Below the pieces are notes generated by a model. The model was not told where the DNA came from, made no database searches, and was given only the letters and a program-made list of their open reading frames with translations. The position numbers and the translations under genes were made by a program. From a virus: DNA of 64,000 bases. Where the stretch lies: the IMG/VR virus record IMGVR_UViG_3300046167_000876. One strand, written 5' to 3'. Below are positions 12,261 to 63,735 of this stretch, in pieces; positions within the stretch are counted from its first letter, which is position 1; each line of letters opens with the position of its first letter.

Positions 12261-12275
12261 TTGAGTTCGTATATT
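12246..12275 (+). promoter_or_regulatory. Bacteroidota-type promoter TTTG-N20-TATATT (early/middle class)
   Basis: TTTG at 12246, CGTATATT at 12268; same geometry at about 16 sites in the window. Confidence 0.75.
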
Positions 12276-14010: not shown

Positions 14011-14040
14011 TTTGGTTCCCCAAATTTCATTTCGTATATT
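14011..14040 (+). promoter_or_regulatory. Promoter TTTG-N20-TATATT upstream of ssb
   Basis: TTTG at 14011, CGTATATT at 14033. Confidence 0.75.
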
Positions 14041-39616: not shown

Positions 39617-39993
39617 TAGAAATTTCAAACGGAGAATTATTAGATAAAATTTCAATTTTAGAGTTAAAATTACTTAAAATTGAAGATGAAGAAAAACTAA
39701 TAAATATTAAAAAAGAATTTGAAACATTAAACCCTTTAGTAATAGAACTATTTGAAAAGTATGATGGTCAATTACAAAATCATTATCTTGAATTAGCTAA
39801 AATTAATGGTCAACTTTGGGATATAGAAGATTGGATTAGAGATTGTGAACGTGAAAAGAGATTTGATAAAGAATTTGTAGAACTAGCCCGTTCTGTGTAT
39901 ATTACCAATGATAAAAGATGTGAAGTTAAAAAATTAATCAATTTAATGACCTCATCAGGATTAGTAGAAGAAAAATCATATAAAGAATATTAA
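39610..39993 (+). CDS. DUF6165-like protein
   Basis: S.GELLDKISILELK, N..LWDIED.IR, ARSVY.TND.R, EEKSY. Confidence 0.7.
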   Translation: MLVEISNGELLDKISILELKLLKIEDEEKLINIKKEFETLNPLVIELFEKYDGQLQNHYLELAKINGQLWDIEDWIRDCEREKRFDKEFVELARSVYITNDKRCEVKKLINLMTSSGLVEEKSYKEY

Positions 39994-40928
39994 TGAAACA
40001 TTTAGAAGAAACACCTTGGTGGATATGTGATACAGATGATGAAAATTATTGTGCCTACGTTGATACTGATTCTAATTATTTTAATGCTGAACCTTTACTT
40101 TTTAAGTTATATCCTAATTTTGAAGAATTATCTGCAGAAAAAAAAGATGATATTTTAGAAAAGGTAGCAATGAAATATCAAGATGTAATTAATGAAGATT
40201 ATGATAGATTAGCTAAAGAGTGTTTTAATGTAACTGAACATCGACTTGAAATGAAAACTGAATGTGTTATTCGTTCAGCTTATTTTAGAGCAACTCGTCG
40301 TTATGCTCAATGGATTACTAAACAAGAAGGAATTGCTAAAGAATCTTTAGATATTAAAGGTTTGGAATTTATGAAAGCAAATTTTCCACCTATCTTAGGA
40401 TCATTTTTTAATGACATACTTCAACAGGTACTAAAAGGTGAAGAAAAATCTAGTATTTTAGATCAAATTAAAATATTTAAAAAACAAATCTTAGATGGTA
40501 CAATACCACTTACTAAACTAGGTAATCCATCAGCAGTTAAAAAATTAGAAAAATACTCGGGTAAAAATGCTAGAGCAGGAGAAATGTTTACAGAAATACT
40601 TAAAGGAGCTCCTGCACCTGTACGTGCTACAATTCGTTATAATGATTTATTAAGGTTATGGCAATTAGATAAAAAATATAATTTAATTACACAAGCAGAT
40701 AAAGTTAAATGGATTTATTTAAGAGATAACCCTTATAAAATAGAAGCATTAGCATTTCAAGATTTTGATGTGCCTGAAAAAATTAATGATTTTTTAAATG
40801 CTTATGCTGATAGACAAAAAGTATTTGATTCAATATTATTAAATAAATTAGAAGGATTCTTTAGTGACTTACAATGGTCATTAGATTTAAATCCTTATAC
40901 AAATGCATTAGCATCTTTTGAGATATAA
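39993..40928 (+). CDS. DNA polymerase family B, C-terminal subunit (motif C plus thumb)
   Basis: YVDTDS, RRYA, IKGLE. Confidence 0.9.
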   Translation: MKHLEETPWWICDTDDENYCAYVDTDSNYFNAEPLLFKLYPNFEELSAEKKDDILEKVAMKYQDVINEDYDRLAKECFNVTEHRLEMKTECVIRSAYFRATRRYAQWITKQEGIAKESLDIKGLEFMKANFPPILGSFFNDILQQVLKGEEKSSILDQIKIFKKQILDGTIPLTKLGNPSAVKKLEKYSGKNARAGEMFTEILKGAPAPVRATIRYNDLLRLWQLDKKYNLITQADKVKWIYLRDNPYKIEALAFQDFDVPEKINDFLNAYADRQKVFDSILLNKLEGFFSDLQWSLDLNPYTNALASFEI

Positions 40929-40951
40929 AATAAACTTCGTATATTACAACT

Positions 40952-41674
40952 ATGGTAAATAAAACAACACTAACATCAGTTATTTCAAAATATTATTTAA
41001 ATGGTTTAAATAATCAAGTAAAATGGCGTATTAAAGATAACCAATTAACTGTTTATGCGGGTGAAAATGGTAGAGTATGTAAAGTAATACATAATAATTT
41101 TAACCTTGAAGACTCAGAATTAGGTGTATTTGATACTCATAAACTTAGTAAATTACTTTCTATCACCAACGGTGAATTAAATATTTCACTTGAAAAAATT
41201 AAAGCGGTTTATACTAAAATACATATCGCTGATTTAAACTTTGATTTAACTTATTCATTAGCTGATATTTTAATTTTAGGTAAAAATACTTATTATGAAG
41301 ATCCTGAAGAATTTGAAATACAAATTGATTTAACAAATGAAGATATTAATCATTTAATTAAAGCTAAAAGTGCTTTAGCTGATGTTAATAATATGTTAAT
41401 CACAAGTACCACAGATATGGATGGGACTAATATATGTGAAATTATATTTGGTGATAATACAGGATTTTCAAATAAAATTACTTATCAGCTTAGAGGTAAT
41501 ATTACTAAAGGAGATATTCAAATTCCTTTTGATTCAGATATATTTAAAGATATTTTAAATGCTAATAAAGATATGGAAAGTGGTACACTGAAAATATCTG
41601 AAGTAGGAATGTTAAAATTAAATTTTTCAACAACAGAAACAGAAAGTGAATACTTTATTGCAAGAAATGAGTAA
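40952..41674 (+). CDS. Sliding clamp (gp45-like)
   Basis: Size, beta-rich two-domain pattern, follows polB; promoter at 40917-40945. Confidence 0.65.
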   Translation: MVNKTTLTSVISKYYLNGLNNQVKWRIKDNQLTVYAGENGRVCKVIHNNFNLEDSELGVFDTHKLSKLLSITNGELNISLEKIKAVYTKIHIADLNFDLTYSLADILILGKNTYYEDPEEFEIQIDLTNEDINHLIKAKSALADVNNMLITSTTDMDGTNICEIIFGDNTGFSNKITYQLRGNITKGDIQIPFDSDIFKDILNANKDMESGTLKISEVGMLKLNFSTTETESEYFIARNE

Positions 41675-41694
41675 ACACATATGTATAATAGAAC

Positions 41695-42224
41695 ATAAAA
41701 TGGAGCTAGGGCACGTGTTATGTTTAAATTAAATTAACCGAGAGCTACGGCCTCACAAAACTAAATGATATGAGTACATTATTCAATGAACGTACACCGT
41801 TCGACTTACTATTCCGTAACTTTTTTAAAGCAGACGGATCTTTTCAACCAACAACGTTTGACAACAAACAACCTCACCCACTAGATATTTTTTACGACGA
41901 AGAAGGGCTTCACTTTGAGATTGCCTGTACTGGTCTAACTAAAAAAGATATTCAACTAGAAATAGATGGAGATCTTTTAAAAATTATCTATGATAAACCA
42001 AAAGAAGAAGAAGATTATTCTGGTTATATCTATAAAGGATTAGCTAAACGATCTTTTAATCTAGGTTATAAAGTAGCAGCTAAATTTGAACTTGAAAGTT
42101 TAACTGCTGGAATGAAAGATGGCTTACTTCATATTTTTATTCCAATAGCTGAATCTAAGAAGCCAAAAACAATTAAAATTCAATAATAAGTTTTATTAAA
42201 AAAGCGTGTCCTAGCGCATTTTAT
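41695..42224 (+). repeat. Imperfect inverted repeat flanking hsp20 (41695-41716 / 42204-42224)
   Basis: ATAAAATGGAGCTAGGGCACGT pairs with GCGTGTCCTAGCGCATTTTAT: 20 bp with two G-U pairs and a 2x1 internal loop. Confidence 0.85.
41770..42186 (+). CDS. Small heat shock protein Hsp20/IbpA-like
   Basis: HP.DI, EIAC.G..K.DI, YKGLAKRSF, A.MKDGLL.I. Confidence 0.9.
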   Translation: MSTLFNERTPFDLLFRNFFKADGSFQPTTFDNKQPHPLDIFYDEEGLHFEIACTGLTKKDIQLEIDGDLLKIIYDKPKEEEDYSGYIYKGLAKRSFNLGYKVAAKFELESLTAGMKDGLLHIFIPIAESKKPKTIKIQ

Positions 42225-42256
42225 TTCGTATATTAACGTCTAAATAAATAAGTTAT

Positions 42257-42574
42257 ATGATAAAAAAAAGAAAGTCTATTCAGACTATTACCGATCCCTT
42301 ACTAGAACCATTCTTTATTACTAAGGACGAATACAGTTATACTGTAAAACAAAATGTGACATCTGATGCCAATCATTTTAGGGCTAAAGGTAAAGCAAAA
42401 ACTTATGAAAAATCCCTATATTATTATGCTAATTTTGAACAGGCTTTACAAAAAATAGCTAAATTACAAGCTGATATTGAAGATTTTGATAGTTTAGATG
42501 AATATATTAACAATTATACAAAAATAAGTACTAACATTAAAAATTATACAAATGGAATTAGAAGCATTGTTTGA
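42257..42574 (+). CDS. Hypothetical protein
   Basis: 105-aa ORF between hsp20 and groES. Confidence 0.7.
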   Translation: MIKKRKSIQTITDPLLEPFFITKDEYSYTVKQNVTSDANHFRAKGKAKTYEKSLYYYANFEQALQKIAKLQADIEDFDSLDEYINNYTKISTNIKNYTNGIRSIV

Positions 42575-42863
42575 TGCCGTTATTGTAAAACCCCAAGAAG
42601 TTGAAGAAACTACTTATGGGTCAATTATTGTGCCTGATTTAGGTAAAGATAGAAATGAGCATGGAACTGTAGTAGCAGTAGGTCCTGGTAAACCAACTGT
42701 AACTGGAACTTTTTTACCAACAACTGTAAAGGTTGGGGATAAAGTAGTTTTACCAACAGTAGGTTTTACTAAATTACAACATTTAGGAGATGAATATTAT
42801 ATTGGCCCCGAAAATCAAATTTTAGCAAAAATTAACCAAACAGAGAAAAAAGAAGATGAATAA
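42552..42863 (+). CDS. groES: Co-chaperonin GroES
   Basis: LFDAVIVK, G.IIVPD, GTVVAVGPG, VKVGDKV. Confidence 0.92.
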   Translation: MELEALFDAVIVKPQEVEETTYGSIIVPDLGKDRNEHGTVVAVGPGKPTVTGTFLPTTVKVGDKVVLPTVGFTKLQHLGDEYYIGPENQILAKINQTEKKEDE

Positions 42864-44475
42864 ACAAGTTACATTAGGTTCAAAAGCTAGAACCAATTTA
42901 GTAAAAGGAATTGATACCTTAGCTGATGCTGTAGTATCAACACTAGGACCAAATGGTCGAAATGTAGTAATAGCAAACGAAATGGGAGTTCCACAATCAA
43001 CAAAAGATGGAGTTACAGTTGCTAAATCAATTAAACTAAAAGATCCTGAACAAGAATTAGGAGTACAATTAGTAAAACAAGCTGCAATTAAAACAGCTGA
43101 AAAAGCAGGTGATGGTACAACTACATCTACTTTATTAGCTCGTGAAATGGTAAAAGCAGGATTAAATGCTTTAAATAATAATGAAAATGCAGTCCAAATT
43201 AAACGTGATATTGATTCTACAGTTGAAAAAGTAGTTAACAATCTTAGAAACAATATTTCAGAAGATATCTCAGGAGAAGAACAATTAGAACAAATTGCAA
43301 CTATATCAGCAAATAATGATCCAGAAACCGGAAAATTAATTGCTACTGCTATTGACAAAGTAGGAATGGAAGGAGTTGTTCATATAGAAGAATCCCGAAC
43401 AGGAGAAACATATTTGGAAACAGTAGAAGGTATGCAATTTGATAGAGGTTATAAATCCCCGTATTTTGTAACTGATAATAATACAATGACTGCTACTTTA
43501 GATAATCCACTTATATTAATTGCGGATAGTAAAATTACTCAAGTAAAAGAATTATTACCTATTCTTGAAAGTGTTTCTTCACAAGCAAAATCATTACTTA
43601 TTATAGCAGAAGATATTGATCAAGAAGCATTAGCAACTCTTATTGTTAATAAAATGAGAGGTACTATGAAAGTATGTGCTGTAAAAGCCCCAGATTTTGG
43701 TGATAGACGTAAATTAGTTTTAGAAGATATTGCAGTCACAACAGGTGGTGTAGTATTTGATAAACAAAAAGGAATGAAAATGGATAAATTTAGTTGGGAA
43801 TGGTTTGGAGAAGCTAGAACCGCAACTATAGATAAAGAAAAGACAACACTGGTAGATGGAAAAGGAACAATTGAATCAATTGAAACACGTATTGAAGAAC
43901 TACAACAACAAATTGACAAAGCAGACTCACCGTTCGAAATCGAAAAACTCCAAGAAAGACTTGCAAAATTTGTCGGAGGAGTAGCAGTTATTCATGTAGG
44001 TGGAAATACTGAAACTGAAATGAAAGAGAAAAAAGATAGGGTTGATGATGCTTTACATGCAACAAAAGCCGCTATTGAAGAAGGTATAGTACCTGGTGGT
44101 GGAACAGCATTATTATATGCATCATCAGGATTAGAAGCTAAAACAACAGGAGCAGCTATTGTAATAGAAGCTTGTGCTAAACCCTTTAATCAAATTTTAG
44201 TTAATGCTGGGTTTGATGAAGTTAAGGGGCAAATTTTAGCTGATAATTTAGTTAACTCTGGTAATGATACTTGGGCTGGATTTAATATTAAAAATGAAAA
44301 AACAGTTAATATGAAAGAAGCTGGTATTATCGATCCAACTAAAGTAGCAAGAACTGCATTGCAAAATGCGGCATCTGTTGCTGGTACAGTATTACTAACA
44401 GAATGTACTGTAGTAAATGAAATTACTGAGGAAAATCCTCAACAACAAGTTGATCCATCAATGATGGGTTATTAA
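42856..44475 (+). CDS. groEL: Chaperonin GroEL
   Basis: TLGPNGRNV, TKDGVTVAK, GDGTTT, GMQFDRGYKSPYF, KLQERLAK, GIIDPTKV. Confidence 0.97.
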   Translation: MNKQVTLGSKARTNLVKGIDTLADAVVSTLGPNGRNVVIANEMGVPQSTKDGVTVAKSIKLKDPEQELGVQLVKQAAIKTAEKAGDGTTTSTLLAREMVKAGLNALNNNENAVQIKRDIDSTVEKVVNNLRNNISEDISGEEQLEQIATISANNDPETGKLIATAIDKVGMEGVVHIEESRTGETYLETVEGMQFDRGYKSPYFVTDNNTMTATLDNPLILIADSKITQVKELLPILESVSSQAKSLLIIAEDIDQEALATLIVNKMRGTMKVCAVKAPDFGDRRKLVLEDIAVTTGGVVFDKQKGMKMDKFSWEWFGEARTATIDKEKTTLVDGKGTIESIETRIEELQQQIDKADSPFEIEKLQERLAKFVGGVAVIHVGGNTETEMKEKKDRVDDALHATKAAIEEGIVPGGGTALLYASSGLEAKTTGAAIVIEACAKPFNQILVNAGFDEVKGQILADNLVNSGNDTWAGFNIKNEKTVNMKEAGIIDPTKVARTALQNAASVAGTVLLTECTVVNEITEENPQQQVDPSMMGY

Positions 44476-63665: not shown

Positions 63666-63677
63666 TGCGCGGGAAAT

Positions 63678-63735
63678 TTTGATACCCGGGCTAGGGTTCG
63701 TATATTTACCACGTTGATGCAGTTAAGCATCACGT
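63678..63735 (+). promoter_or_regulatory. Early promoter TTTG-N19-TATATT with 5' leader hairpin
   Basis: CGTATATT at 63699; ACGTTGATGC-AGTTAA-GCATCACGT at 63711-63735. Confidence 0.65.

Follow-up and report, generated by a model that had tools for sequence, protein, structure and literature searches.

Why would the two spacers on either side of a phage gene for a small heat-shock protein be complementary to each other, as if the messenger RNA were to be closed end to end? This question is raised by the hsp20 locus of an uncultured marine phage, whose hosts are Flavobacterium-like bacteria. The locus lies within a 64-kb stretch of DNA that was analysed at its full length (hereafter, the window). 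An earlier note on this DNA had described the complementarity and had read it as a switch at the RNA level, with thermosensing and circularisation among its possible uses. Hereafter, the long-range helix is called H2, and the two local hairpins of the hsp20 leader are called H1 and H3.

The hsp20 locus and the long-range helix

The genome is T4-like and has all the genes of the window on the + strand; those around hsp20 follow the order polB-C, 240-aa ORF, hsp20, 105-aa ORF, groES and groEL. Among them, the following can be delimited: (i) the C-terminal part of a split family-B DNA polymerase (polB-C; 39993-40928, +); (ii) the hsp20 ORF of 138 aa (41770..42186 in the ORF list, +), which matches Pfam HSP20 with an E value of 1.2e-11 and is followed by a second in-frame stop codon at 42187-89; (iii) a conserved 105-aa ORF between hsp20 and groES (42257-42574, +), with no match in Pfam; and (iv) groES (42552-42863, +), which overlaps the 105-aa ORF by 23 nt. 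The 105-aa ORF was found in nearly all relatives and, therefore, may be part of the chaperone module. No DNA-level match to 40900-43000 was found in cultured phages, and the best cultured-phage match for GroEL is that of Flavobacterium phage vB_FspM_immuto_2-6A (59% identity). An identical hsp20 is carried by a 157-kb metagenome contig (JACKZZ010009883.1; locus L127), and none of the members of the group that has hsp20 with this bracket is cultured.

The complementarity of 20 bp that had been claimed for the two flanks of hsp20 is present in the window. It consists of two parts: (i) a core of 12 bp, in which 41705-41716 (GCTAGGGCACGT) pairs with 42204-42215 (GCGTGTCCTAGC); and (ii) an outer part of 8 bp, in which 41695-41702 (ATAAAATG) pairs with 42217-42224 (CATTTTAT). 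Both parts are separated by a 2x1 internal loop (GA versus G). The only two pairs that are not of the Watson-Crick type, G41711-U42209 and U41716-G42204, are both G-U on the + strand, as the earlier note had pointed out. The 5' arm of H2 lies 55-75 nt upstream of the hsp20 ATG, and the cistron that would be looped out measures approximately 490 nt, the bulged-A leader hairpin (H3) included.

According to RNAduplex, the duplex between the spacers of hsp20 reaches -32.6 kcal/mol, compared with -19.0±3.4 in dinucleotide shuffles, and none of 2000 shuffles was as low. When the eight genes of the window that are flanked at either end by spacers of 35 nt or more were compared, the runner-up reached -12.7, and no other bracketed gene was found among them. 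The 11-mer GCTAGGRCACG occurs at both arm sites and nowhere else in the 64 kb; likewise, repeat and motif searches found no further copy of the arm motif or of the leader hairpin within the window. In the RNA from 41690 to 42236 (547 nt), the minimum free energy (MFE) structure and the centroid structure are both closed by H2, with a z score of -4.5. In contexts of 0.5-2 kb, H2 has a predicted pair probability of 0.96-1.0, whether at 15 or at 37 °C; that of the outer part is 0.84-0.86 if the RNA is made to start at 41696.

Two candidate features of the same sequence were rejected. An extension of the duplex out to 41680/42240 most likely corresponds to two copies of a near-palindromic promoter motif (TATACGTATA) and was excluded from the helix. 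A frame of 10 codons (41700-41732), whose ATG at 41700 lies within the 5' arm, is probably not meaningful, since that ATG is missing in most relatives.

Conservation, covariation and the level of the pairing

Three scans of sequence collections with hsp20 proteins yielded the loci numbered L001-L125 and L127-L206. In those from the first scan (n = 79), the gene order is kept: polB-C, 240-aa ORF, sometimes an extra ORF, hsp20, 105-aa ORF, groES and groEL. All hsp20 loci have one orientation throughout. A strong duplex was found in every one of the 186 loci having both flanks, which represent 120 distinct flank pairs; their mean is -28.8±3.1, versus -10.9±3.0 for shuffles, and 99% of the distinct pairs fall below the first percentile of the shuffles. 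In general terms, the core of H2 is rich in G+C and 10-13 bp long, the outer part is rich in A+U and measures 5-10 bp, and the internal loop that separates them is asymmetric. The median number of pairs that relatives form between the two promoter motifs is 18.5; the regex trimming at these motifs was noisy (11 loci had no motif match and some were mis-trimmed), so that the distances are rough.

The arms themselves differ in sequence between lineages, and among 15 representative loci no fewer than nine arm sequences with different cores can be told apart, each of them complementary to its own partner. The window has the 5'/3' arm type GCTAGGGCACG / CGTGTCCTAGC, and relatives have the types TTAGGACACGCT / AGCGTGTCCTAA, GCTAGAGCAC / GTGCTCTAGC, GCCAGGGCACG / CGTGTCCTGGC, ACCTAAGGGCGC / GCGCCCTTTAGGT, GACCTTAGAGC / GCTCTAAGGTT, CTTTAGGGCGCC / GGCGCCCTAAAG (which in L092 reads CTTCAGGG / CCTGAAG) and CAAGGCGCGCT / AGCGCGCCTT; more types occur in L118, L119 and L120. 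When the arms of the 15 loci were crossed with each other (15 x 15), cognate combinations averaged -27.8 and non-cognate ones -15.3±5.4, and in 13 of the 15 loci an arm's own partner was its best partner. Matching changes are also seen in the outer part, which reads AAAATG/CATTTT in the window versus ATATTG/CAATAT in relatives.

A MAFFT alignment of 60 distinct mRNA regions points in the same direction. With H1, H2 and H3 taken together, 93.3% of its cells are paired, versus 29-60% when the partner is slid; nine pairs are changed on both sides, and the covariation score is 0.177 versus 0.118, a value that none of 500 shuffles attained. For the core of H2, 92.5% of the cells are paired. The divergent arm types were misaligned by MAFFT, which makes these counts conservative; such types were studied by duplex prediction instead. 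The 3' arm is much less variable than the 5' strand, and nearly constant in the main arm type, probably because of its double duty as a strand of H2 and as the site of the -33 position of the next promoter.

The covariation across homologous hsp20 loci that had been put forward as a check is thus found in 120 distinct flank pairs, and matching changes on both sides in about 120 relatives show the pairing to be a real RNA element. That H2 is under selection as an RNA structure is well supported. As in UTR pairing of the hbs and icaR kind, leader and trailer have stayed complementary in evolution. No family in Rfam corresponds to an element that brackets hsp20, and no description of the element was found in the literature on long-range UTR pairing with RNase III and on thermometers of phage hsp20 genes.

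Pairing of RNA leaves a different trace from pairing of DNA, and the earlier note had argued for the former from the G-U pairs. In the main arm type, the 12 core pairs of 55 distinct sequences comprise 521 Watson-Crick, 113 G-U and 3 A-C cells, and transitions in the 5' arm retain wobble pairs against a near-constant 3' arm. The + strand duplex is more stable than that of the minus strand in 56 of 60 cases, with averages of -33.5 versus -27.3, and a strand-neutral scoring, in which G-T and A-C were treated alike, gave 115 G-U versus 32 A-C. The G-U bias of the + strand holds for both arms. This asymmetry excludes duplicated sites, recombination sites and an insertion relic at the DNA level, and it shows that selection on pairing within the + strand RNA is ongoing. 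RNA-level closure on the + strand is borne out both by the MFE and centroid folds and by covariation.

A feature of the DNA itself (the relic of an insertion into a hairpin, a pair of recombination or inversion sites, or a pair of protein-binding sites) has nevertheless some attraction for a gene as cassette-like as hsp20, which is missing in the nearest cultured relative, is flanked by two promoter-like motifs and has a parallel in the PeSL-bounded cassettes of T4-type phages (PMC2839356). Hsp20 is the most conserved protein of the neighbourhood, with 83-93% identity in most first-scan loci, compared with 29-70% for the neighbouring proteins (79 loci); in the lineages with hsp20 at 83-93%, the 240-aa ORF is at 39-56% and GroEL at 64-73% (L001-L079 versus window 39993-44475). 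One locus (L016) has the arms of one lineage together with the ORF and H3 of another, and hsp20 seems to be exchanged among phage lineages via recombination inside the spacers. The bracket is kept with the 240-aa ORF, an extra ORF or polA upstream; in L030 and L077, the cassette lies between polA and groES. In a number of loci (L005-L007, L012, L018-L021, L027-L029, L033, L037-L038, L046-L048, L051, L057, L059 and L065), 470-1200 nt of extra sequence, probably with at least one ORF, is present between the 240-aa ORF and hsp20; in these loci, the 5' arm stays adjacent to hsp20.

The closest cultured relative, immuto_2-6A, offers a natural empty site with a promoter motif: polA is followed by groES and groEL, with no hsp20 and a spacer of 63 nt (L126, 3630-3692), and neither arms nor a hairpin were found in that spacer. 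The insertion of hsp20 into the loop of a pre-existing terminator is ruled out by this hairpin-free site; hence, the arms came with the insertion of hsp20 or arose afterwards, and are not the halves of an older terminator. The bracket is tied to hsp20 and not to the neighbouring genes. Still, no bracket (-19.0, versus -22.6 for shuffles) surrounds the distant hsp20 of Pelagibacter phage HTVC008M (31% identity), which has an ordinary local terminator, so the element is not general to phage hsp20 genes. A DNA-level feature is, in short, largely refuted and hardly credible: 113 G-U against 3 A-C cells are unexpected for DNA duplexes or duplicated sites, one-sided transitions retain wobble pairs although the partner strand is constant, a hairpin is missing from the empty site and all the loci are oriented alike. 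Besides, the arm sequences are completely different between lineages, so no common protein site exists.

Leader hairpins, promoters and transcript extent

The local hairpin that had been reported to compete for the 5' arm is present as well, and covaries. H1 (41691..41725, +) has a stem formed by 41691-98 (GAACATAA) and 41718-25 (TTATGTTT), and its loop of 19 nt holds the 5' strand of the H2 core (GCUAGGGCACGU; 41705..41716, +; 12 bp with 42204-15). The 5' strand of the outer part (AUAAAAUG; 41695..41702, +; paired with 42217-24) has 4 nt (41695-98) in common with the 5' half of H1. In the alignment, 91.6% of the H1 cells are paired and three of its eight pairs show changes on both sides, for example C-G versus U-A at 41694/41722. 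For RNAs that stop short of the 3' arm, H1 is predicted with a probability of about 0.9 in most contexts tested; with the 3' arm present, the value drops to 0.0. From these predictions together with the covariation, we infer that H1 is a holding hairpin of the nascent RNA that would be displaced when the 3' arm appears. As for the proposed switch, the predicted alternation of H1 with H2 looks sequential and not environmental.

Downstream of H1, the tetraloop hairpin noticed earlier was found again at 41740..41754 (+), with the addition of a bulged A: H3 has the form GAG-A-GC[UACG]GC-CUC, with a loop of the UNCG/GNRA type, and is found at a single place in the window. Every one of the 112 loci tested can form it, with 20 sequence variants among them; the bulged A is invariant and the 3' edge of the hairpin stands at 15±1 nt before the ATG. 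In the alignment, 97.9% of its cells are paired, with compensatory changes. Such a fixed geometry suggests a role of its own in protein binding or in the positioning of the ribosome. H3 is followed by an A-rich leader (41755-41769) with no Shine-Dalgarno sequence, whose absence is expected for Bacteroidota.

A motif of the form TTTG-N~20-(C)GTATATT lies upstream of at least 10 genes of the window and resembles the -33/-7 promoter type of Bacteroidota. Copies of the promoter-like motif (T)TTCGTATATT are found at 12268, 14033, 30259, 34817, 40938, 42227, 44665, 46465, 54634, 57982 and 63699, with TTTG or TGTG approximately 20 nt upstream and at 8-190 nt before gene starts. Some copies are preceded by small hairpins (14011-14032, 63666-63690).

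The copy that follows hsp20, here P2 (CGTATATT; 42227..42234, +), belongs to the next unit, composed of the 105-aa ORF, groES and groEL. Its hexamer is TATATT (42229-34), as in 52 of 56 distinct relatives. The overlap that had been described between the 3' arm and the next promoter holds, as the -33 position of P2 falls within the arm: the 3' strand of the H2 core (GCGUGUCCUAGC; 42204..42215, +) also spans this position, and the 3' strand of the outer part (CAUUUUAU; 42217..42224, +) ends 2 nt before the P2 motif.

Upstream of hsp20, the promoter-like motif P1 (TGTATAAT; 41682..41689, +) is kept as ATA(T/C)GTATAAT in nearly all relatives. It deviates from P2 in its hexamer, mostly TATAAT, and a TTG of the -33 type stands at the right distance in only 6 of 95 distinct copies; P1 is a doubtful promoter. 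Since H1 covaries and its first base lies 2 nt past the P1 hexamer, any RNA with H1 must have been initiated farther upstream; in consequence, the functional RNA is, at least in part, a read-through product from the 240-aa ORF. The spacer before hsp20 does pair as had been said of it, but its label as a 5' UTR is to be qualified, for it may be intercistronic, given that H1 abuts the P1 hexamer. No terminator-like site was found between the hsp20 stop codon and P2; hence, transcripts probably continue into the chaperonin genes. With read-through at both sides, H2 would bracket one cistron within a longer transcript.

Function of the helix and its relation to known systems

The function of H2 is inferred here from anatomy and analogy. 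Its most likely role among several, and one that we consider somewhat more probable than all the others together, would be that of a processing and stability clamp, which is favoured because of the stable core, the asymmetric internal loop, the weaker outer part, the length of about two turns and the free start. During the transcription of hsp20, the 5' arm would sit in the loop of H1, kept from mispairing with the coding region. On emergence of the 3' arm, the cores would pair, H2 would extend into the 5' half of H1 and H1 would melt. Then, one of two things could happen: (i) a host double-strand-specific nuclease of the RNase III type (presumably present in the host) would cut near the internal loop, which would free hsp20 from transcripts running into the 105-aa ORF, groES and groEL, and the G+C-rich core would keep the new ends together after the cut; or (ii) the duplex would remain uncut and hide both ends. 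By either route, the hsp20 message would be protected both from 3' exonucleases and from any decay that requires a free 5' end and, as a result, its level would be set apart from that of its neighbours. Translation would not be blocked, because the start region lies outside H1, H2 and H3. From its anatomy, RNase III processing is plausible: like the stalks that this enzyme recognises, the flanks of the unit form about two turns of double-stranded RNA (8 + 12 bp). As regards the suggested circularisation, nothing in the analysis points to covalent circles.

Against the clamp it can be said that a duplex of 20 bp could equally mark the RNA for destruction, as in icaR. Furthermore, the 3' arm begins merely 6-10 nt past the stop codon in several arm types; a terminating ribosome would open part of H2 in each round, which fits a coupling of translation and decay better than a clamp. 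These points lead to a negative control of the icaR/hok kind, in which the closing helix would keep the full-length message short-lived or inert, either through its destruction by RNase III or through activation only after trimming of the 3' arm and refolding of the 5' end into H1. Its two states (H1 without the 3' arm, H2 with it) would mirror the metastable hairpin of hok and the fbi/tac logic; the pairing in icaR is known to make an RNase III substrate and to lower expression (PMC3868564); and the 3' arm lies within reach of the terminating ribosome in some arm types. Nevertheless, we regard such a control as rather unlikely. The start codon, the A-rich leader and H3 are outside the H1 and H2 helices in both states, so that no translational block is visible, and Hsp20 is a chaperone and not a toxin, as well as the most conserved protein of the neighbourhood, with no apparent reason for its silencing.

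Two further possibilities give H2 a role in sensing or in transcription. Small HSP genes are often under RNA thermometers, and in a sensor of temperature or stress, heat would melt the A+U-rich outer part, which overlaps H1, or shift the balance between H1 and H2, changing the expression of this heat-shock gene. Thermosensing is, however, very improbable: H2, the whole 5' arm included, stays at a predicted 0.96-1.0 at both 15 and 37 °C, with a duplex near -30 kcal/mol; neither the start codon nor a Shine-Dalgarno sequence is covered by a helix, H1, H2 and H3 all ending 15 nt or more upstream of the ATG; and Rfam gave no match to ROSE or fourU at E values up to 5 (41000-43000). A long-range terminator or insulator, in which the helix and a following U-run would halt transcription before the next promoter, is brought to mind by the 3' arm of the window, which continues into UUUUAUUU and occupies the place that a small hairpin takes before the same promoter motif in other spacers of this phage. 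But the U-run is itself paired in H2, and an intrinsic terminator, with a hairpin directly followed by a U-run, is not what was found. Termination requires fast closure of a hairpin, to which stem halves 500 nt apart are a poor fit. This role is also improbable because in several arm types the arm is not followed by a U-run (...AAGAACCCUUCG in L091-95, AAUAUUAUUCG in the common type).

The element is an intramolecular pairing between the 5' and 3' parts of an mRNA, which is a known kind of structure. In the hbs mRNA of Bacillus subtilis, a leader-trailer pairing of 14 bp, off the ribosome-binding site, modulates endonuclease access and stability (Braun, Durand & Condon, 2017; PMC5737220). Both cases share a long-range intramolecular pairing that leaves the ribosome-binding site uncovered, in hbs within the message of a small and abundant protein; the hsp20 element differs in its longer helix (about 20 bp and more), its dedicated holding hairpin, its occurrence in a Bacteroidota phage and its probably polycistronic transcript. 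In Staphylococcus aureus, the 5' and 3' UTRs of icaR pair over the Shine-Dalgarno region, and translation is repressed by this pairing (Ruiz de los Mozos et al., 2013; PMC3868564). In contrast, the start region of hsp20 is free (5' arm at 41695-41716, ATG at 41770), and the 3' arm does not pair with a ribosome-binding region.

The closest parallel to the holding hairpin would be the hok mRNA (hok/sok, plasmid R1), with its fbi/tac fold-back and its metastable 5' hairpins. This mRNA encodes a toxin, is kept untranslatable and is controlled by an antisense RNA. Closure from end to end is common to both, as is a local 5' hairpin restricted to RNA that is nascent or has lost its 3' end, whereby the fold signals whether that end is present; in hsp20, the closure and the metastable hairpin are supported by prediction and covariation. 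Unlike hok, the hsp20 element has no toxin (the product is Hsp20), no sequestered ribosome-binding site (the start region is free) and no antisense partner, none having come to light when the window was searched for repeats and motifs.

RNase III stalks are known from the precursors of 16S and 23S rRNA and from the early mRNA sites of T7. Like them, H2 comprises approximately 20 bp or more drawn from the flanks of a unit, has an internal loop, as the T7 sites do, and would leave paired ends if cut. But the rRNA stalks flank non-coding RNA and the T7 sites are local intergenic hairpins, whereas cleavage around hsp20 is only hypothetical. We know of no described stalk around a single protein-coding cistron. 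Small heat-shock genes can also have a structured leader in the form of ROSE and fourU thermometers, which are local hairpins over the Shine-Dalgarno sequence or the AUG that melt at physiological temperature. The hsp20 helices neither cover the start region nor melt, by prediction, between 15 and 37 °C, so that the earlier view of an element distinct in kind from these thermometers is upheld with respect to sequestration, Rfam matches and melting. As for the PeSL cassettes of T4-type phages, a local stem-loop acts there as a terminator and promoter motifs are repeated (Arbiol et al., 2010; PMC2839356). The hsp20 cassette resembles them in its small accessory gene, T4-like genome, flanking promoter motifs and gain or loss among relatives; unlike them, it has its stem halves on either side of the gene in place of a promoter and a local stem-loop terminator at each side, and the empty site has no stem-loop.

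The distinctive features of the hsp20 element are the enclosure of a whole cistron, the co-evolving holding hairpin, the overlap with the next promoter and the very broad comparative support. To our knowledge, end-to-end pairing of bacterial mRNAs has been studied in only a handful of cases (hok, icaR and hbs), none of them with comparative support as broad as about 120 variants and at least nine independent sequence solutions. Tentatively, the element might even represent a new class of phage mRNA, though we hold this to be considerably less likely than not: (i) a cistron within an rRNA-like processing stalk with a dedicated holding hairpin, in which a host double-strand nuclease would excise a self-clamped, long-lived monocistronic message from the operon transcript; or (ii) a sensor of 3'-end integrity, in which H1/H2 would couple the decay of hsp20 mRNA to read-through or translation.

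The natural arm types are a ready-made set of orthogonal arm pairs for RNA engineering, already validated by nature. With its co-evolving holding hairpin, the element would be a model for the co-transcriptional assembly of a long-range RNA helix. It would equally be a model for the control that a phage exerts on the level of a single gene inside an operon, and this in Bacteroidota, whose mRNAs have no Shine-Dalgarno sequence and whose RNA decay has been little studied.
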